A stretch of DNA of 8,114 nt, taken from the IMG/VR virus record IMGVR_UViG_2700989165_000007. The stretch is one strand, 5' to 3'. The stretch is from a virus. Its lineage: Duplodnaviria > Heunggongvirae > Uroviricota > Caudoviricetes. The notes beneath the pieces are model-generated. The model had not been told where the DNA came from, ran no database searches, and saw only the letters and a program-made list of their open reading frames with translations. Below are positions 1 through 8,114 of the stretch, one piece after another. Made by a program: the position numbers and the translations under genes. Numbering within the stretch: the stretch's first letter is position 1; each line of letters starts with the position of its first letter.

Positions 1-58
1 TAAGACTATCACTTAAATAAGTGATACTGGTTGTCTGGAGATTCAGGGGGCCAGTCTA
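1..58 (-). mobile_element. IS2 terminal fragment (left inverted-repeat end; body of the element lies beyond the window start)
   Basis: Reverse complement of 1-58 reads TAGACTGGCCCCCTGAATCTCCAGACAACCAGTATCACTTATTTAAGTGATAGTCTTA, which I recognise as the IS2 left terminus. Match is from memory, not an alignment. Unrelated sequence starts at 59. Confidence 0.6.
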
Positions 59-600
59 GCAGCTGCTCTACGGTCATATTTTTAATTGCGCTCCGGTTTA
101 CAAGAGCCCACCCCTGTTTTTCCAGATAAAACTGGAAAGTATCCAGGGTACAGACCAGTGCACCGTCAGGAACAGTTTCGGTGAATCTGATATTGCCGTG
201 TTCGTCGAAGTGCACAACCAGAGTGCGACCGTTACCCGGAATCATCTTGTCAGCGGACGGGGTATTATTCTGGTGCAGTTCTGCCTCCATGCGGTCGAAC
301 ATCAGCGATGTAGGCCTCTTTGAATGCAGCGGCTTTTTTCCCAGTGAAGCCCATCACCAGGAAAACGAAGCCGTTTTTGGTGATTTGGTACATTGGGCGT
401 TTTTCGCCTTTGGTGTCGGTGTAGGTGACGTCCTCAAAATTGAGGGCGTTAAATTCAGGTGAGCATTCAGTATTTGCGATGGCACGTAACACATTGTCGT
501 GTCGTTTGTGGAAGAACTCTGCAACCGCAACAGACGTAGTGACAGCGCGACCGTTTTCGATGGTTACGTCAGGGTGAGAAAGGGCAGGGATAGTAGCCAT
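59..600 (-). pseudogene. Rha-family phage regulatory protein (antirepressor-like), frameshifted near 300 and 3'-truncated by the IS2 insertion
   Basis: Minus-strand ATG at 598-600 with GAGGA about 7 nt upstream. Translation (MATIPALSHPDVTIENGRAVTTSVAVAEFFHKRHDNVLRAI...FNALNFEDVTYTD...KNGFVFLVMGFTGKKAAAFKEAYIA) fits the phage pRha domain pattern. This frame stops at TAA 265-267, but the expected continuation (FDRMEAELHQ...) is in another frame (ORF 9..302), implying a 1-nt indel near 300-303. That frame then runs into IS2 sequence at 58, so the last ~16 codons are IS-derived. Confidence 0.6.
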
Positions 601-765
601 GATGGCATCCTCGAGTGATAAGTTAATTAACTCACCACCGAGGTTTTCCACGACCATAAGGGTGGTGAGACGTACAGGGGTGGAAATACCGGTCACTCGA
701 GAACCCGGCCAGTCTTGCGACTGCCCTGCACATCCCACCATAATTTGAATGGAGCTGTGCATTAC

Positions 766-796
766 GCATAAAAAAACCGCTTCAGCGCGGCTATGC
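766..796 (-). terminator. Candidate intrinsic-terminator-like hairpin followed by a T7 tract (minus-strand sense)
   Basis: Minus-strand sense reads CGCATA-GCCGCGCTGAAGCGG-TTTTTTT-ATGCG. Inner stem CCGC/GCGG (4 bp, extendable with A-U and G-U pairs), then seven T; outer arms CGCATA/TATGCG (766-771 and 792-797 on the plus strand) enclose it. The stem is short, so this is weak. Confidence 0.2.
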
Positions 797-1301
797 GCTC
801 GAGTAACGTTCGGGTTTCCACGCCCGGCCCCCGTTTTATGAGGTGCAGATGCACTATAATTCCACCCGTTCTGGTTTTCAATAGCTACATTCAACATTTT
901 CTCTTACCTTTCATCACCGAAGTGAACTTTGTTGATGCGGTGCCTGGTGCCTCCAGGTGACGTTAACCAGTTAACAATTAACGCCGGATACAGGGAAACC
1001 CATAACCACCCGATACGTGGGAACTAATCGCTTTTTAACTGTTCCGCGTGCGCTCAGCCGCATTCACCGCATCACAAAATTCACTTTAAAAAGGGCGGAC
1101 ATCAGCCAGCAATGAAACTGATGCCGCCAAAGGTACCAATCAACATGGAGTGTTGTGGCGTGGTTGTCACTTAAGCGTATGGTCAACCTGACAACCCGGT
1201 GTCCTCAACGGGGAAGGAATAACTCCGCCATACTTACCGCCGCGTCATTTCGCGTTGTGTGCCTGCTTTTAACTACGTCAGGCGAGGTGGTTCCTGTTAT
1301 T

Positions 1302-1349
1302 CCCCAACAACAAGAAATTTGTATAATCTGAATACCCCAACAATAAGAA
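1302..1349 (+). promoter_or_regulatory. Candidate promoter: TATAAT -10 hexamer (1322-1327) bracketed by two 15-bp direct repeats CCCCAACAA(C/T)AAGAA
   Basis: Perfect TATAAT at 1322-1327 about 50 nt upstream of the ORF starting at 1374. Direct repeats at 1302-1316 and 1335-1349 differ at one position. No convincing -35 hexamer was found. Confidence 0.25.
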
Positions 1350-1373
1350 GAGTGAGCAAGTGATGTATTAGCG

Positions 1374-1610
1374 ATGTCAGCTCTCAAAGAGACTGCATCA
1401 ATGTTAAAATTATTCAATGAAGCAAAAACTCAGGCTGAGGTTGATCGCGCTGTGTCTGAAATAAACTCTAAGTTGTCAAGCATTCAGCTTGAATATTTGT
1501 CTCTCATTGATGAGCTGACAATCTCTAAAAGCAATGAGGCTGCGCTCAAAGCAAAACTCACGGAGATAGAAAAGTTTAAGTTCCAAAGTGAAGACTGCGA
1601 ACCTCGCTAA
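1374..1610 (+). CDS. Hypothetical alpha-helical (coiled-coil-like) protein, 78 aa; probably the N-terminal part of a 148-codon ORF interrupted by an in-frame TAA
   Basis: ATG at 1374 (alternative ATG at 1401), K/E/L-rich helical-looking translation, stop TAA at 1608-1610. The next ORF begins at 1611 in the same frame. Region is visibly AT-rich relative to its flanks. Shine-Dalgarno is weak. Confidence 0.35.
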   Translation: MSALKETASMLKLFNEAKTQAEVDRAVSEINSKLSSIQLEYLSLIDELTISKSNEAALKAKLTEIEKFKFQSEDCEPR

Positions 1611-1820
1611 TTGATTACTGGAACGATTGTGTATGCCAGACAGTGCAATACTAGCTCTGGCAAGATTACCATGTATTTTTGTCCAGAATGTTTTGCGAAG
1701 AGAGCAATATCTATATTGCAACCTTTCCCTATCGAGGAAGGCGATAAATATACGAAAACTCAATGCCCCTCCTGTAAAAATGAGTATCTCATGGACTACA
1801 ATTTCAATAATGATTTTTGA
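1611..1820 (+). CDS. Hypothetical C4 zinc-ribbon protein (CPEC ... CPSC), 69 aa; may be the C-terminal part of the upstream ORF
   Basis: Same frame as 1374-1610, starting immediately after its TAA. Contains CxxC-x24-CxxC. As an independent gene it would need a TTG start at 1611 or ATG at 1671 with a poor ribosome-binding site. Confidence 0.3.
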   Translation: MITGTIVYARQCNTSSGKITMYFCPECFAKRAISILQPFPIEEGDKYTKTQCPSCKNEYLMDYNFNNDF

Positions 1821-2037
1821 GTCAAGGTATTCAGATTTTTAAAGAACATGCCGGATACTCACCCGTGTCCGGCGCACGCACTCCACCTCACCCGTGGAGA
1901 ACTCCTTAATTACCAACCTTGGCTTCGTTGGTTAGCCATTAACGCTGGTATGTAATCATTCTGGCAATGCTTAATTTGAAGTGGCACACTGAATTTGGCC
2001 ACCTGAACAGAGGTGATATGCTCACCTCAGAACAACA

Positions 2038-2561
2038 GTAAGCGCCCCATCAGCGACGTCTTGTGAAAATTGTCCTGTCTGGCAACAATCGCGCCCATCT
2101 ATATTGATGGACACGAACGATGAATTCCCAGACAACAAAAGATATTCCCTGCTTCCGTTCTTATTTGCCTGATGCCCTGCGTTTAAGATTTGAAGATAAA
2201 CTGACCATCCGGGCCATCGCTCAGCGTCTGGGTCTCAGTCATTCCACAATACATACGCTTTTTCAGCGATTTCTTGCATCCGGTATCGCATGGCCATTGC
2301 CCGATTCAGTTTCATTCGCTCAACTTGACGCCATCCTTTATGCCAACAGAAAGAAGGAATTAACAGAGCCTCAAATCAGAGAAGGCTCATGGCGAAAAGA
2401 ACGGCGAACCAGCTATAGCCGTGAATTTAAGGTCCGTCTGGCTAAGCAGGCATTACAGCCTGGGGCTGTTGTTGCCCGGATCGCCAGAGAACACGATATC
2501 AGGGATTTCAGTGCCCAGTACTCCCACCGGAACGTATATAGCATCCCCACAATTTTTCATT
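2038..2561 (+). mobile_element. IS element left end, IS66-family-like, with orfA; body of the element unresolved in the N-run
   Basis: Sequence from 2038 begins GTAAGCGCCCC; a terminal GTAAGCG is characteristic of IS66-family inverted repeats. An HTH transposase-accessory ORF starts 82 nt downstream. Family assignment is tentative and from memory. Confidence 0.35.
2120..2561 (+). CDS. IS transposase accessory protein (OrfA/TnpA-like, helix-turn-helix), partial; 3' end lost in the N-run
   Basis: Translation has two HTH-like segments: LTIRAIAQRLGLSHSTIHTLFQRF, and RRTSYSREFKVRLAKQALQPGAVVARIAREHDI. The second resembles the IS3/IS66 OrfA transposase_8 motif. The ORF runs without a stop into the Ns at 2562. 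Confidence 0.45.
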
Positions 2562-2904
2562 NNNNNNNNNNNNNNNNNNNNNNNNNNNNNNNNNNNNNNN
2601 NNNNNNNNNNNNNNNNNNNNNNNNNNNNNNNNNNNNNNNNNNNNNNNNNNNNNNNNNNNNNNNNNNNNNNNNNNNNNNNNNNNNNNNNNNNNNNNNNNNN
2701 NNNNNNNNNNNNNNNNNNNNNNNNNNNNNNNNNNNNNNNNNNNNNNNNNNNNNNNNNNNNNNNNNNNNNNNNNNNNNNNNNNNNNNNNNNNNNNNNNNNN
2801 NNNNNNNNNNNNNNNNNNNNNNNNNNNNNNNNNNNNNNNNNNNNNNNNNNNNNNNNNNNNNNNNNNNNNNNNNNNNNNNNNNNNNNNNNNNNNNNNNNNN
2901 NNNN
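2562..2904. other. Run of 343 N (unresolved or masked sequence); a second 10-N run at 2960-2969
   Basis: Directly visible. The X-filled ORFs in the track across this interval are artefacts. Confidence 0.99.
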
Positions 2905-2905
2905 C

Positions 2906-3089
2906 TCACTGGGCCGCCTGTCCCCGGTAGTCATGCTGGCAAAATCTGTCACAGCACAANNNNNNNNNNGCAGAACAGGAGGCGAAGCTGTTCACGTTTG
3001 AATGGAACGGTCGTATCTGGAATGCTGGTCCCGATTCACTGGGCCGCCTGTCCCCGGTAGTCATGCTGGCAAAATCTGTCACAGCACAA
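2906..3089. repeat. 54-bp exact direct repeat (2906-2959 and 3036-3089) flanking the 10-N gap
   Basis: TCACTGGGCCGCCTGTCCCCGGTAGTCATGCTGGCAAAATCTGTCACAGCACAA occurs twice, 130 bp apart. The first copy sits as an island between the two N runs. Confidence 0.9.
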
Positions 3090-3284
3090 ACACATATGGC
3101 GTGGAGCGATGCCGATAATCAGCAGGTGAAACTGTCGATGCCGGAACTGGAAGAACTGGCGGCAGCAATGGTGCAGGCGCAGGTCGATCGCAACGATGAG
3201 ATTTATCGCCGTCAGCGGGAGCTGAAGGAAGAGCTGAATAGTCTGAAGGATTTGAATTCGGTTAGGAATTTTATCGTGGAATAA
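2970..3284 (+). CDS. Phage-module protein, C-terminal fragment (possibly tail-fibre-assembly/DUF4376-like); 5' end lost in the gap
   Basis: Open frame from the gap edge to TAA at 3282-3284: ...FEWNGRIWNAGPDSLGRLSPVVMLAKSVTAQTHMAWSDADNQQVKLSMPELEELAAAMVQAQVDRNDEIYRRQRELKEELNSLKDLNSVRNFIVE. The W.DADN..V.L...EL..LA motif is reminiscent of tail-fibre-assembly-like C-termini. The family call is weak. Confidence 0.3.
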   Translation, partial: AEQEAKLFTFEWNGRIWNAGPDSLGRLSPVVMLAKSVTAQTHMAWSDADNQQVKLSMPELEELAAAMVQAQVDRNDEIYRRQRELKEELNSLKDLNSVRNFIVE

Positions 3285-3292
3285 CAGAAGCT

Positions 3293-3321
3293 GCGGCACG
3301 TCGTATGCAGGAACGTGCCGC
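3293..3321. terminator. Perfect 9-bp inverted-repeat hairpin (GCGGCACGT / ACGTGCCGC, 11-nt loop) between convergent genes
   Basis: Lies 9 nt after the plus-strand stop at 3284 and 164 nt past the minus-strand sitD stop. No flanking U-tract on either strand, so intrinsic-terminator function is uncertain. Confidence 0.3.
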
Positions 3322-3484
3322 GGTTGGCTGGTAAACTTTCGATAGTGCGAGTATTGAATGATTTCTAGGCGTTATCGATTTTACGTATTTTTTGCATGAT
3401 AGAATTCGTACCTCCTCCCAACGACCTTCCATGGCTTTCCGGACTTCTGTAGGCTGGCGGACGATGCTGTCCTCGGATGTTGTG

Positions 3485-4342
3485 CTAATTGGGTGATAAC
3501 AGATCCTGTGTATGGGCGTTTCCCTTTGTGCGTGCGTTGATGCTGGTAACGGTAAACGTCATGATGAACACGACCGCGAATAAGACGACAATCGTCGGAG
3601 CTGGTGCGCTGTCGATAAAAAAGGACAGCCAGACACCAGTCATTGACACTATTACCGATATGCCAGTCGCCAGTAGGAGCGCAATATGAAAGCGTTGTGT
3701 CAGGAGTACTGCAATGGCGCCAGGCGCAATGAGCAGAGAAATAGAGAGAATGATACCTACTGCTTTCAGCGTCGCCACAATGGTCAGGGAAACCATGCAC
3801 AGCAGCCCATAATGCAGCCATCTCGTATGCAAACCGCTTACCTGCGCCTGTTGATAATCAAAGCTGAACAGCAAAAAATCCCGCCATTTTACGCTAATAA
3901 CAAGTGTAACCAGCCCGGCAATAATCACCGTCTGGATTATATCGCCGATGGTTATCCCGAGCATGTCGCCGAAAAGAATATGGTCAAGATGTACGTCTGG
4001 TTTAATTGCAATATACAAGATCAGACCTGCGGCAAACATGCCAGAAAAAACAATCCCCATAACTGTATCTTGCTTGATTCGGCTGTTGTCTTTCAGGTAT
4101 CCCGTCGCCACCGCGCAGAATACTCCGGCGACGAATGCCCCTGTAGCCAGAGGTAACCCCAGAATCCAGGTAAGCACGATGCCAGGAAAAACCGCATGAC
4201 TCATCGCGTCACCCATCAGTGCCCAACCTTTCAGGACCAGAAAGACCGACAGCAGCGCACAGGGTATGGAAACTACCAGTGAAATCAGCAGTGCGTGACT
4301 CATAAAGGTGAACTGCAGTGGCTCCAGTAATAATGCCATCAT
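3485..4342 (-). CDS. sitD: Mn/Fe ABC transporter permease SitD (ABC-3 family membrane protein)
   Basis: 285 aa, highly hydrophobic multi-helix translation. Start overlaps the sitC stop in an ATGA arrangement (4339-4342). Last gene of a four-gene binding-protein/ATPase/permease/permease operon. Confidence 0.85.
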   Translation of the reverse strand: MMALLLEPLQFTFMSHALLISLVVSIPCALLSVFLVLKGWALMGDAMSHAVFPGIVLTWILGLPLATGAFVAGVFCAVATGYLKDNSRIKQDTVMGIVFSGMFAAGLILYIAIKPDVHLDHILFGDMLGITIGDIIQTVIIAGLVTLVISVKWRDFLLFSFDYQQAQVSGLHTRWLHYGLLCMVSLTIVATLKAVGIILSISLLIAPGAIAVLLTQRFHIALLLATGISVIVSMTGVWLSFFIDSAPAPTIVVLFAVVFIMTFTVTSINARTKGNAHTQDLLSPN

Positions 4343-5196
4343 GAGCGATCCTCCAGCGCTTTATGCGCACGCCGACGATTTGCCAAAAGTCCATGGGTGG
4401 GCGCAAATACAAATGCTAAAAGAAACAGCAGTGTCTGCGCCACCACGATGATTCCACCTGTCGCGCCGTCCAGAAAGTAACTGACCCACGCGCCGAGGAA
4501 ACTGGTTACACTGCCAATAGTTACAGCAATTATGAGCAGGCGGGGAAAACGATCGGTTAACAACCATGCTGTTGCACCGGGAGTCACCACCAGACAGATC
4601 ACCAGAAACGCACCAACCGTTTGCAGCGCCGCAACGGTCGAAACCGACAGCAGGGTGAAGAAGAGGATTTTTAATCTGCCCGGATGTAATCCAATAGCAC
4701 GGGCGTGATTCTCGTCGAAAAAGGTCACCATAAGATCTTTCCATTTGAAAAAAAGCACGATGATCGAGAGAATGCCAATGATAGTGAGTTGCAGGATATC
4801 CGCCGGATCGATTGCCAGAATATTGCCCAGGACGATGGTCTGAATGTTCACGGATGTCGGGTTCAATGACACCATAAACAGCCCCAGGCCAAAAAAGGAC
4901 GAGAAGATCAGGCCGATGATGGCATCTTCTTTTAAGCGGGTGCGTTGGTTAAGAAACAGCATGCTGCCCGCTGCCAGTCCGCCGGAAAAGAAGGCTCCCA
5001 GAGAAAACGGAAGCCCCAGCATATATGCCCCCGCAACACCCGGGACAATAGAGTGCGACAGCGCATCGCCAATCAGCGACCAGCCTTTTAGCATCAGATA
5101 GCATGACAGGAAAGCGCAGAGACCGCCGACCATTGCCGAGACCCACATCGCATTGAGCATATATTCATAGCTGAAGGGTTCCAGTAGCACGTTCAT
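4339..5196 (-). CDS. sitC: Mn/Fe ABC transporter permease SitC (ABC-3 family membrane protein)
   Basis: 285 aa hydrophobic protein, paralogous in pattern to the downstream permease. ATGA overlap with the sitB stop (5193-5196). Confidence 0.85.
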
Positions 5197-6020
5197 CTTG
5201 CTTCCCTCTGCACCGCTGACGGTCGATGTGCCACAAAAGGGCGTTCATCGTCAGTAATAATGCTTTCTTCCGAGCCGTTAAGTGTGACATGGCGCAGTAC
5301 GCCGCTAAAAGCCAGCTCCAGGTTCTCGGCTGTAAAAGTGGTGTCTGTCGGCCCGCTTGCCAGGACGGTGCCTTTGACCATGACCGTATAATCGCAAAAT
5401 GTCGTGACTGAGCCGAGATTGTGCGTTGAGACAAGCATCGTTTTGCCTTCCGCGCGTAACTCCCTCAACAGGCTGATGATTTTCGCTTCGGTTTTCACAT
5501 CAACGCCGGTAAAAGGTTCATCCAGCAGGATCACATCACCCTGCTGTGCAATTGCTCTCGCCAGAAAGACGCGTTTCTTTTGTCCACCGGAAAGCTCGCC
5601 GATTTGACGATGGCGAAAATCCACCATATCGACACGTTCCAGCGCATCGGTGACAATCTGACGATCCCTCTTTTTGGCTATACGCAACATACCCATATGC
5701 CCATAGCGGCCCATCATCACCACATCTTCCACCAGTACAGGAAATGACCAGTCAACCTCTTCTGACTGAGGGACGTAGGCAACCAGGTTTTTCTGTAGCG
5801 CCTGTCGCGTGGGAATACCCAGAACAGATATCTTTCCGCTGGTCAGACGCACAAATCCCATAATCGCTTTAAACAACGTCGATTTTCCGGAACCGTTTAC
5901 CCCAACCAGAGCGGCAATAGATCCACTTGGTACTGTGAAGGATGCATCGCGCAGTGCTGTGTGCCCGTTACGCCAGGTGACAGTAACATCATTAACGACA
6001 ATGCCTGCAGATTGCATCAT
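5193..6020 (-). CDS. sitB: Mn/Fe ABC transporter ATP-binding protein SitB
   Basis: 275 aa with Walker A (GVNGSGKST), ABC signature (LSGGQKKR) and Walker B ([11 protein letters not shown]). GGGAGAA ribosome-binding site inside the 3' end of sitA. Start overlaps the sitA stop by 1 nt. Confidence 0.9.
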
Positions 6021-6934
6021 TATTTCTCCCTTTTCCCGGCTTTAATTCCCTGTACCAGCGTACTGGTAGTAACCTTAAGAAGGTCGATATACGTAGGTAC
6101 CGGGCCGTTTTCTGTGCTCAGGGAATCGACATAGAGCACACCGCCGTAGTGTGCGCCGGTTTCACGCGCAACCTGACGCGCTGGTTTATCGGAAATCGTA
6201 CTCTCGCTAAAGACTGCCGGGATATGATTTTTCTTAACTATATCAACAACCTTACGTACCTGCTGCGGTGTTCCTTGTTGATCGGCATTAATCGGCCACA
6301 GATAAAGCTCTTTTAGCCCCAAATCGCGTGCGAGATAAGAAAAAGCCCCTTCACTGGTGACCATCCATCGCTGATTCTCAGGGAGTTCCGTAATCTGCTT
6401 ACGCAGGGGGGCAAGGGTTTGGGTAATCTTGGCTTTATAAGTATCGGCATTACGTTGGTAGGTTTGTGCATTTGCCGGATCGTATTTTATCAACGCATCA
6501 CGAATATTATCGACGTAAATCAGAGCATTATCTGGCGACATCCATGCATGGGGATTAGGTTTGCCCTCATAGGGTCCTTCGGTGATCCCTACTGGCGTCA
6601 CACCCGAAGAGACAATTACTTCTGGAACCCCATTGAGATGCTGGTAAAAGCGTTGGAACCACAATTCCAGATTCATACCATTGGCGAGAATCAGTTGTGC
6701 CCCCTGCGCACGTTTAATATCGCCAGGGGTAGGCTGATACTCATGAATTTCTGCACCAGGCTTGGTTATGGATGAGACTTCTGCAGCATCTCCAGCCACG
6801 TTTTTGGCCATATCCGCGATGATGGTAAATGTTGTAATGACCTTGAATTTTTCAGTTGCACTTGCCTGAAATGCGATCGAGCAGGTGAGGGCGAGGCACC
6901 CCAAGAGCATGGTTACTTTTTTTATTGAGTGCAT
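6020..6934 (-). CDS. sitA: Periplasmic Mn/Fe-binding protein SitA (TroA-like cluster A-I substrate-binding protein)
   Basis: 304 aa with an N-terminal signal peptide ([26 protein letters not shown]). Gene order and sizes (304/275/285/285) fit SitABCD. The symbol is assigned from recognition, not a search. Confidence 0.85.
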
Positions 6935-6966
6935 AATTTAGTACCTATAGTGAGCAAAATTAGAAC

Positions 6967-6988
6967 AAACATAGCAACGGCTATGTTT
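6967..6988 (-). promoter_or_regulatory. MntR box: perfect palindrome AAACATAGC-AACG-GCTATGTTT in the sitA promoter region
   Basis: 9-bp arms are exact reverse complements with a 4-bp spacer, 33 bp upstream of the sitA start codon. Matches the MntR operator as I recall it from mntH. Confidence 0.6.
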
Positions 6989-7010
6989 TATAGCATAACC
7001 TATACAAAAT

Positions 7011-7029
7011 GAAAATAATTATCATTAAC
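7011..7029 (-). promoter_or_regulatory. Fur-box-like site GAAAATAATTATCATTAAC
   Basis: 15 of 19 positions match the Fur consensus GATAATGATAATCATTATC by eye. It lies upstream of the MntR box in the sitA promoter region. Confidence 0.5.
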
Positions 7030-7143
7030 AGCTTTGAGGCCTAAAACAGGGATTAGGTTGTTTCCTGCTGGCGACATGATATTGAGGAAAAAAGTAGAGC
7101 AGCTATTAGGCTTTGAAATGACTTTATGAGGAAAATTGTTGAT

Positions 7144-7215
7144 GGCAAAAATGGGGCAAAACGCTGTATAAGGGGCAAAAAAGGGGCAAAAAAGGGGCAA
7201 AAAAGGGGCAAAAAA
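7144..7215 (+). repeat. GGGGCAAAAAA tandem array: four perfect 11-bp units (7172-7215) plus degenerate copies at 7144-7151 and 7153-7161
   Basis: Directly visible. The A6 tracts recur every 11 bp, in phase with the helical repeat. Confidence 0.9.
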
Positions 7216-7220
7216 GAGTG

Positions 7221-7428
7221 GGTTATCGTAGCTTATTGTTGTCGCTGATAATGTTTAACATATTGAAAAATAAATAAAATACTTATGAGTCAGATAGTTG
7301 TGATTTTTGCCCTTACTTGTTCAGGTCGTATTGTTCTTTCTTTGTAATTTGTTGATTTTCTTGCATTATTTCAGTTCTCTGGTACTAAATGGGGCAAATT
7401 GGGGGCAAACTTTGCAACTACGATAACC
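7221..7428. repeat. 11-bp inverted repeat pair GGTTATCGTAG (7221-7231) and CTACGATAACC (7418-7428)
   Basis: Exact reverse complements. Each arm lies just 3' of a GGGGCAAA cluster. The right arm contains the integrase stop codon (7418-7420). Confidence 0.85.
7391..7409 (+). repeat. Two further GGGGCAAA copies (7391-7398 and 7401-7409); an inverted copy TTTTTGCCC sits at 7305-7313
   Basis: Same motif as the tandem array, about 180 bp away, just upstream of the integrase stop codon. Confidence 0.85.
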
Positions 7429-8057
7429 GCGCATTCAACATGGCTATCTGTTCGTCGTTCATGTCATCAATCCACATACCGTAAATTTCATACACCATTT
7501 GCGCAGTTTCATGCCCCATCTGGCTGGCTATAAATGCCGGGTTCGCTCCTGCCGTCAACAGCCAGCAGGCAAAAGTATGTCGCGTGTGGTACGGATTACG
7601 GCGGCGAATACCAGCACGTTTTACTGCTGCATTCCATCTTGTACCCAAACTGCTTACCGAGTAATAAGGTTTCTGTTTTTCGTTACACACCCTGGGCATG
7701 AAAACAAAATGCAGTTTTTGTTTTTCAGTTCTGCCGTACTCCCGATGATAAAAAGTGATTTCGCTTTTGCGATGATGCCCGGTCAGTTTGTATTGCTCCT
7801 TCAGTGCTTCAAGAGCCGGCTGCAGTAATGTTACCGTCCGGATCCCGGCATTTGTTTTTGGGGGACCGAACATATCAAGTATCGTCAGGTTTCTTCTGAC
7901 ATTCACAATTCCCTTCTCGAAATCCACATCCTCCCACGCCAGAGCTGCCAGTTCCCCGTGACGAAGCCCGGAGTAAACGGCAAATTTCCACAAGTTTTGG
8001 CTCTGTCCTTTTTCACTTTCCATTAATGCATTGAATTCTGTTTTAGATAACGGGTCA
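7418..8057 (-). pseudogene. Tyrosine recombinase (phage integrase) C-terminal catalytic domain; N-terminal part removed by the IS1 insertion
   Basis: Translation carries integrase catalytic-domain motifs (SGLRHGELAALAWEDVD; HTRHTFACWLL; VYEIYGMW). Only about 213 native codons remain. The apparent TTG start at 8069-8071 is inside IS1 sequence, and an in-frame stop lies at 8081-8083. Confidence 0.7.
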
Positions 8058-8114
8058 GGTAATGCTGCCAACTTACTGATTTAGTGTATGATGGTGATTT
8101 TAAGGTGCTTGCGT
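8058..8114 (+). mobile_element. IS1 terminal fragment (inverted-repeat end; element continues beyond the window end)
   Basis: GGTAATGCTGCCAACTTACTGATTTAGTGTATGATGGTG matches the IS1 terminal inverted repeat and adjacent sequence as I recall it, with isoform-level differences. Confidence 0.7.

Follow-up and report, generated by a model that had tools for sequence, protein, structure and literature searches.

The closest described relative of the locus analysed here is the pathogenicity island (PAI) sit of Shigella flexneri, which a passage in PMC7545054 (citing Fisher 2009) describes as rich in insertion sequences (IS) and phage genes and unstable by homologous recombination, yet maintained in isolates. 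Here we analyse an 8,114-nucleotide (nt) stretch of viral DNA, IMG/VR record IMGVR_UViG_2700989165_000007 (positions 1-8114, hereafter the window), in which the metal-transport operon sitABCD likewise lies amid phage-like genes and IS. The locus is the already described PAI sit of S. flexneri, and our findings fit the published work; the window differs from the island only in its gene order across an assembly gap, and in nothing substantive. In particular, we describe its gene content, its lesions, the type of its phage attachment (att) junction, its gene order and the selection on sit, and from these we infer tandem lysogeny and mis-scaffolding.

Three further systems frame the comparison. 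First, sitABCD is found on 70% of lambda phages from infant-gut Escherichia coli, always with a Fur box (Mathieu 2020, PMC6969025), and it is described as a moron in Perceval, a prophage of LF82 (PMC9928086). The lambdoid phages ev207, 1H12, Lambda_2E9 and Perceval resemble the window in the cassette itself (98% identity), its orientation, its slot and its upstream Fur box (PMC6969025, PMC9928086), but they are viable and have icd-type integration, whereas the carrier in the window is dead and has att and integrase (int) sequences of the Rac type, which is directed at ttcA. Second, Rac of E. coli K-12 integrates inside the 5' end of ttcA (Liu et al. 2015, PMC4632033). The integrase of the window has ~96.5% DNA identity to Rac-like intR annotated in E. 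coli, and in both cases the att core falls in the first ttcA codons and the phage supplies a replacement 5' end of ttcA; unlike Rac, the window has neither attL nor attR but the attP form, in which both phage arms are present, and the S. flexneri array does not lie at ttcA. Third, sitABCD of Salmonella pathogenicity island 1 (SPI-1) and yfeABCD of Yersinia share the same composition of a substrate-binding protein, an ATPase and two permeases, as well as control by Fur and MntR (PMC3852070); their vehicle is a pathogenicity island or the chromosome, whereas that of the window is a lambdoid phage of which sit is the cargo.

Taken as a whole, the window is very probably composed of two pieces of the known S. 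flexneri sit island, with sit as phage cargo, a prophage in tandem, and an artefactual join of the two pieces. According to this explanation, sitABCD would be a self-contained cargo cassette of ~3.7 kb with its own Fur- and MntR-controlled promoter, lodged in a ttcA-integrating lambdoid phage of Rac type, between its tail-fibre genes and its attP. The host would retain sit for the import of Mn2+/Fe2+, and the surrounding phage genes, no longer needed, would have succumbed to IS2, IS1, ISSfl3, an IS3-family remnant, a frameshift and a nonsense codon. A second Rac-like prophage would follow in tandem, with a block containing the Rha gene further along its early-left arm, and the adjacency of Rha and ISSfl3 to sit would stem from a scaffold gap that falls within a 712-bp tail-fibre repeat. 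A useful phage cargo operon that outlives its carrier during Shigella genome decay would be textbook behaviour, and the main practical value of the analysis is cautionary; it also identifies the attP junction and two 712-bp direct repeats.

Lineage and content of the window

The gene layout was established from a listing of open reading frames (ORFs) together with direct reading of the sequence. Complete S. flexneri chromosomes share 99.7-99.9% identity with the window, and S. flexneri SFBU1023, which is free of the runs of undetermined bases (N) that interrupt the window, matches its sit half at 99.6-99.9% identity; judged by sequence, the DNA is of S. flexneri lineage. A preliminary description made from the letters alone had named IS2, Rha, an IS66-like element, a tail-fibre fragment, sit, an integrase and IS1. 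All of these are present, and database searches (profile matches and BLAST) upheld the flanking phage and IS calls. Its count of three IS elements was correct for IS2, ISSfl3 and IS1 but passed over a fourth remnant, an IS3-family end at 1977-2037, and a nonsense mutation at 1608 is a further lesion beyond those it had named. It also made no mention of the N runs or of the 55-nt island between them. In the comparison of base composition that it proposed, the GC content of sit (0.50) differs little from that of the remaining coding sequence in the window; the AT-rich parts are the P arm of the attP (0.35) and a 148-codon phage gene (0.385).

The sitABCD operon and its control region

The operon and its predicted operators comprise the following features.

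3485-6934, minus strand: sitABCD operon, full length and intact, with overlaps of 1 or 4 nt between genes
6020-6934, minus strand: sitA, 304 amino acids (aa), ZnuA domain PF01297
5193-6020, minus strand: sitB, 275 aa, PRK15056 at 594 bits (cutoff 393) and ABC_tran PF00005
4339-5196, minus strand: sitC, 285 aa, ABC-3 PF00950
3485-4342, minus strand: sitD, 285 aa, ABC-3 PF00950
6967-6988, minus strand: MntR palindrome AAACATAGCAACGGCTATGTTT, perfect, 0 expected by chance
7011-7029, minus strand: Fur box, 16/19 match, 0 expected by chance

The gene products have the full architecture of a SitABCD importer, with SitA as a substrate-binding protein of cluster A-I, SitB as the ATPase and SitC and SitD as ABC-3 permeases. 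RefSeq gives the names sitA, sitC and sitD to 99%-identical DNA, and the four Sit proteins show 0 nonsynonymous differences from their counterparts in E. coli O121 and S. flexneri SFBU1023. Identity to the characterised S. flexneri and E. coli systems suggests that the encoded SitABCD would transport Mn2+/Fe2+. Repression of sit by Fur and MntR through promoter operators is known (PMC3852070, PMC6969025), and predicted binding sites for both regulators are present in the control region (6967-7029). Thus, the preliminary description was right that the four genes are intact and overlapping and that, as far as predicted sites can tell, a metal-responsive promoter has been kept. A promoter and terminator scan, which yielded nothing above shuffled expectation, gave no terminator 3' of sitD.

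Compared with E. coli and phage copies, from which it is ~2-3% divergent, sit shows 40-41 synonymous and 10-15 nonsynonymous differences, and the resulting ratio of nonsynonymous to synonymous changes per site (pN/pS) of 0.08-0.12 makes long-term purifying selection on sit clear (pN/pS ~0.1). Within Shigella and enteroinvasive E. coli (EIEC) there are only 2-6 differences, too few for a lineage-specific estimate. The earlier suggestion that sit has been under purifying selection while its carrier decayed therefore holds for the long term, and the neighbouring genes have indeed decayed, but selection within Shigella is not measurable because there are so few substitutions.

The cargo slot behind the tail-fibre genes

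In E. coli, sit is located at the right end of Rac-like prophages, beside uspF, in the order ttcA, intR, early genes, tail fibres, sitDCBA, attR, uspF and ompN. The free lambdoid phages ev207, 1H12, Lambda_2E9 and Perceval share window positions 3465-7125 (3.66 kb) at 98% identity, and in these phages the order is tail-fibre genes, sitDCBA and an icd-type attP/int/xis module. The sit operon is accordingly a discrete cassette, in a single slot that accepts alternative cargo, as a moron should be. These comparisons support the view that sit is intact phage cargo in the moron slot after the tail-fibre genes; the moron position behind a tail-fibre module, already proposed in the preliminary description, has its counterpart in the matching slot of ev207, 1H12 and Perceval (PMC6969025).

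The slot after the DUF4376/tail-fibre genes and before attP is a hot spot for cargo. In a second S. flexneri copy (locus L012, 11247-13765) it holds ipaH after a second DUF4376 gene, in avian pathogenic E. coli (APEC) O1 (locus L030, 3509-8298) it holds cdtABC-IV together with a hydrolase and an omptin, and in E. coli H22 (locus L002, 6222-7424) an MFS exporter accompanies sit. We also considered whether a "metal ABC permease" pseudogene beside uspF in APEC O1 might be a sit remnant of a second prophage, and rejected this, since it has no nucleotide similarity to the sit genes of the window.

The junction between sit and the integrase

To the right of sit, the window contains a phage attachment region, the remainder of an integrase gene and the start of an IS.

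7153-7409, plus strand: seven GGGGCAAA motifs in the attP arms (0.35 expected), five at 7153-7212 and two at 7391-7409
7317-7359, strand not applicable: att core, 43 bp common to E. coli attR and attL (BLAST overlap)
7418-8057, minus strand: C-terminal 213 codons of a Rac-type integrase gene (intR), PF00589, cut by IS1 at 8058
8058-8114, plus strand: first 57 bp of IS1, 100% identical to the IS1 end; the full IS1 continues in SFBU1023

In BLAST comparisons with E. coli, window positions 3297-7359 match the sit/attR side of the prophage, and positions 7317-8059 match the ttcA-intR attL side. Because these matches overlap in the 43-bp core, sit and the integrase are separated by an intact Rac-type attP, consisting of P arm, core and P' arm; the integrase next to it is truncated, and any recombination there by IntR/XisR would require IntR in trans. 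The phage carries a copy of the first 17 ttcA codons (7366-7316, minus strand; translation MQENQQITKKEQYDLNK), and the core falls inside it. An 11-bp tandem array of 4.3 copies (7170-7216) occupies the P arm, and the two GGGGCAAA motifs of the P' arm adjoin the int stop codon. The copy number of GGGGCAAA varies, with SFBU1023 lacking 34 nt of the array, and the motifs are candidate arm-type binding sites for IntR.

A survey of 5426 complete E. coli genomes revealed the same attP-int junction in 38, including H22 and APEC O1. Both of these strains have the junction at the ttcA/uspF locus, flanked by a prophage to the left and by a short remnant to the right, which is the layout expected of tandem lysogens.

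What lies beyond IS1 is apparent from S. flexneri CP097828.1, for which we merged two overlapping loci (L022 and L013) into a composite map. There, 421 bp of int are deleted beside IS1, and the first ~170 nt of int survive beyond it, followed by xisR, recE, racC, ydaE and kilR, in the order of a Rac-like left arm, and then by IS2 and window positions 1-2561. Because they are collinear in this way, the integrase fragment and the Rha block belong to one downstream prophage. Moreover, since the spacer between sit and int is an intact attP, there would appear to be a second Rac-like prophage in tandem, with the integrase as its first gene and tandem lysogeny as the origin of the junction. These observations agree with the preliminary description on two counts, namely that the integrase was disrupted by IS1 (at 8058, which leaves only the C-terminal 213 codons in the window) and that it may belong to an adjacent or tandem prophage, as the P-O-P' junction with its 43-bp shared core indicates.

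Order of the two halves of the window

The Rha/IS66 half and the sit half of the window meet in a region made up of the following features.

2038-2501, plus strand: 5' fragment of ISSfl3 (IS66 family), NF038385 at 181 bits, 99.8% identical to ISSfl3 copies
2502-2561, plus strand: tail-fibre gene sequence, the start of a 712-bp repeat that occurs twice in S. flexneri, identical in both copies
2562-2969, strand not applicable: assembly gap region, with N runs at 2562-2904 (343 N) and 2960-2969 (10 N), 353 N in total, on either side of a 55-nt island (2905-2959)
2970-3284, plus strand: 3' part of a DUF4376 tail-fibre-associated gene, PF14301, tail fibre phrogs

For comparison we used complete S. 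flexneri chromosomes, of which eight loci (L012-L019) were retrieved by means of a lineage-specific truncated ORF of 78 aa. In these chromosomes, window positions 1-2561 (99.92-100% identity) lead into a DUF4376 gene, a 59-codon ORF and ipaH, and not into sit; the sequence is unbroken into DUF4376 and ipaH in four genomes (L012-L014 and L017), and has extra IS insertions in L016 and L019. A junction between the ISSfl3 fragment and sit was present in none of the complete S. flexneri genomes examined. In the CP097828.1 composite, window positions 2970-8114 are found at 6951-12084 and window positions 1-2561 at 21181-23741, so that the two pieces stand in reverse order and 9.1 kb apart. It is the ipaH-linked copy of the tail-fibre sequence that the ISSfl3 fragment truncates, whereas upstream of the sit-linked copy an intact tail-fibre gene remains. 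The DUF4376 regions form a pair of 712-bp direct repeats, 17,158 bp apart and 98.5% identical (6524-7235 and 23682-24393 of the composite), which are identical to each other for 492 and 182 nt on the two sides of a single-nucleotide polymorphism (SNP).

The gap itself is also irregular. Its 343 N stand for 432 nt of real sequence, the 55-nt island duplicates positions 3035-3089, and after the island the sequence steps back by 120 nt; we therefore rejected the idea that the N runs are length-preserving masking. A length of 55 nt is that of a typical k-mer, and the pattern of N runs and island is what would be expected from a short-read assembly graph that collapses a repeat. Given the reversed order in complete genomes, the wrong gap length, the 120-nt back-step and this collapsed-repeat pattern, the join of Rha and ISSfl3 to sit is probably a scaffolding artefact across the collapsed 712-bp repeat. 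Gene order across 2562-2969 is thus unfit for claims about synteny or island boundaries.

These results bear directly on the model put forward in the preliminary description, in which the whole of 1-8114 is one contiguous remnant, the IS66-like element broke the tail-fibre gene upstream of sit, and the integrase came from an unrelated neighbour. The sequence does read in this way if the N runs are ignored. However, contiguity is not established across the 353 N that separate the Rha/IS66 half from the sit half, the complete genomes have the ISSfl3/tail-fibre junction beside ipaH and an intact tail-fibre gene beside sit, and the integrase, which is collinear with the Rha block, is connected to sit by an attP belonging to the same type of phage; we regard this model as highly improbable. 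From it there remain the junction of ISSfl3 with tail-fibre sequence at 2501/2502, although it is the ipaH-linked and not the sit-linked copy that is truncated, and, in the synteny comparison with Shigella and E. coli, the cargo setting of sit, although not the order from Rha/IS66 to sit.

RecA-dependent deletions of sit have been reported for S. flexneri, and recombination at the 712-bp direct repeats could plausibly underlie the known instability of the sit island. The repeats bracket sit together with 17 kb of prophage DNA, and a deletion between them would leave a hybrid DUF4376 gene followed by ipaH. The same repeats offer a way in which the window could be contiguous after all, for recombination between the direct DUF4376 repeats (17.2 kb apart) could produce either a tandem duplication of the segment from sit to ISSfl3 or an excised circle. 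The junction of either recombinant would read ISSfl3 fragment, hybrid DUF4376, sit, and a duplication would amplify sit. This topology fits the window, whose left part derives from the ipaH-linked copy and whose right part derives from the sit-linked one, and frequent rearrangement of the island by homologous recombination has been reported (PMC7545054, citing Fisher 2009). The alleles within the repeat could be read in the same sense. The DUF4376 fragment at 2970-3284 corresponds to the sit-linked copy at 10 of 11 discriminating sites, and the remaining site, 3035, has the allele of the ipaH-linked copy, so that an ipaH-copy allele is followed by sit-copy alleles as a crossover would give; the island starts exactly at the repeat SNP with allele C, and the equivalent position, 3035, has T. 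However, the sit-linked copy of SFBU1023 also has T, so position 3035 is not diagnostic, the junction is absent from the complete S. flexneri genomes mentioned above, and the join is backed only by a scaffold with two N runs, the wrong gap length and the 120-nt back-step. Recombination as the source of a contiguous window is thus improbable, and it is, if anything, still less to be expected that the ISSfl3-to-sit join is real as a tandem duplication or excised circle of the 17-kb sit segment. Were it so, the join would be the reciprocal product of the RecA-dependent sit deletions, and a duplication would represent copy-number amplification of a metal-uptake virulence operon.

Tandem lysogeny and scaffolding weighed

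Several observations tell against the explanation that we favour, in which sit is cargo of a Rac-type phage, a second such prophage follows in tandem and the join is an artefact. At the sit promoter, no canonical -35/-10 pair passed the scanner. Mis-scaffolding in this particular assembly is deduced from related genomes and not from the structure of the source assembly. The S. flexneri genomes themselves vary in this region, with L015, L016, L018 and L019 each showing other IS-mediated arrangements, and because they differ in this manner a lineage with a genuine Rha-to-sit join may exist. Finally, the S. flexneri array is not at ttcA (its right flank is yebW/rsmF), and S. flexneri strains are listed as lacking a Rac-like prophage at that locus (PMC4632033). 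If tandem lysogeny took place at ttcA, a rearrangement must have come later, or else a single phage must have entered by another route.

The second of these options would make sit, attP and int parts of a single phage genome in vegetative (circular-map) order, which would have entered by a route that does not involve att, for instance by recombining with a resident prophage or through insertion mediated by an IS. The order in CP097828.1 (late genes, tail fibre, sit, attP, int, xis, early-left genes, rha and ydfC) is one circular permutation of the lambdoid map, minus only the segment from immunity to Q, and the absence of a Rac-like prophage at ttcA in S. flexneri (PMC4632033) is in keeping with such an entry. 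On the other hand, H22 and APEC O1 have the same attP-int junction at ttcA/uspF, as tandem lysogeny predicts, and in S. flexneri the early-left arm is succeeded by another tail-fibre/DUF4376 copy, which carries ipaH as cargo of its own. Entry of a single phage is therefore rather unlikely, and we continue to favour two Rac-like prophages in tandem.

Among the variant genomes (L015, L016, L018 and L019), some are without window positions 1668-1973 and have a complete IS3-family copy instead. L019 contains a complete IS66-family element, and in this genome sit, the truncated int and IS1 are just two IS elements to the left of the block of IS2 and truncated rha.

Boundaries of the ISSfl3 fragment and the sit module

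Full ISSfl3 is annotated as tnpA-tnpB-ISSfl3 transposase. The fragment in the window is its first 464 nt, consisting of the left inverted repeat, which starts GTAAGCG, and codons 1-127 of the 225 codons of tnpA (start at 2120); it is thus short of a complete IS66 element, which has tnpA, tnpB, tnpC and both inverted repeats. That a complete IS66 element might be hidden in the gap was rejected, since homology to tnpA ends at 2501 and tail-fibre sequence begins at 2502, before the gap. On the other side of the gap, a weak partial match to CssrB, a Shigella small RNA family (3267-3322; 30 bits, gathering score 76), overlaps a GC-rich hairpin after the DUF4376 stop codon and coincides with the left boundary (3297-3299) of the sit module common to E. 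coli.

The Rha block

The left part of the window contains the following features.

1-58, minus strand: terminus of IS2 (IS3 family), 58 bp, 96.6% identical to an IS3-family end in E. coli, with the body of the element outside the left end of the window
59-600, minus strand: Rha-family regulator pseudogene, TIGR02681 at 106 bits and PF09669 at 99 bits
658-745, minus strand: C4 antisense RNA, 76.7 bits (Rfam gathering score 45), upstream of rha
770-846, minus strand: isrK RNA, 59.6 bits (Rfam gathering score 50), upstream of rha
1374-1820, plus strand: 148-codon phage gene, phrog_1244, no Pfam match, CAA-to-TAA nonsense codon at 1608-1610
1939-1975, minus strand: ydfC remnant, the last 11 codons and stop, the remainder deleted
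1977-2037, strand not given: end of another IS3-family element, 61 nt, 100% identical to the end of a complete IS3-family copy in L012-L018

Window positions 1-2561 correspond to L012 8628-11188, directly after a 409-aa IS3-family transposase, and in S. flexneri positions 1-58 run on into an element annotated as an IS3-like IS2 family transposase, which identifies the terminus as IS2. Consistent with the earlier claim that Rha was disrupted by IS2, rha has lost its last 13 nt, including the stop codon, to this element; in addition, alignment to the intact gene of E. coli RMDEC465 indicated that its frame is split by a +1 insertion at 301 (ORFs 265-600 and 9-302). The IS3-family end at 1977-2037 was matched in about 4000 E. 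coli genomes, under IS3-family transposase features.

Upstream of rha, C4 and isrK (658-846) make up the antirepressor-control module of the downstream prophage. An open frame also occupies the minus-strand interval 601-897, which overlaps both RNAs. In the PGAP annotation it forms the N-terminal part of a Rha protein of 282 aa, and both Pfam Phage_ASH (54 bits) and phrog_995 match it, so that RNA and protein models claim one and the same sequence.

The 148-codon gene is intact in E. coli RMDEC465, and the same nonsense codon (the truncated 78-aa allele) is present in the eight S. flexneri loci L012-L019, which were themselves retrieved through the truncated allele. In the product of the gene, the N-terminus is a coiled coil and there are two CxxC pairs. 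The ORF listing gives two small ORFs on the plus strand in the low-GC DNA that separates the Rha gene from the tnpA start. Between the rha module and this gene, the minus strand at 928-1141 gives two sub-threshold matches, one DicF-like (38.8 bits, gathering score 48) and one STnc100-like (36.5 bits, gathering score 47), in surroundings that, with the ydfC remnant nearby, resemble the dicF region of Qin.

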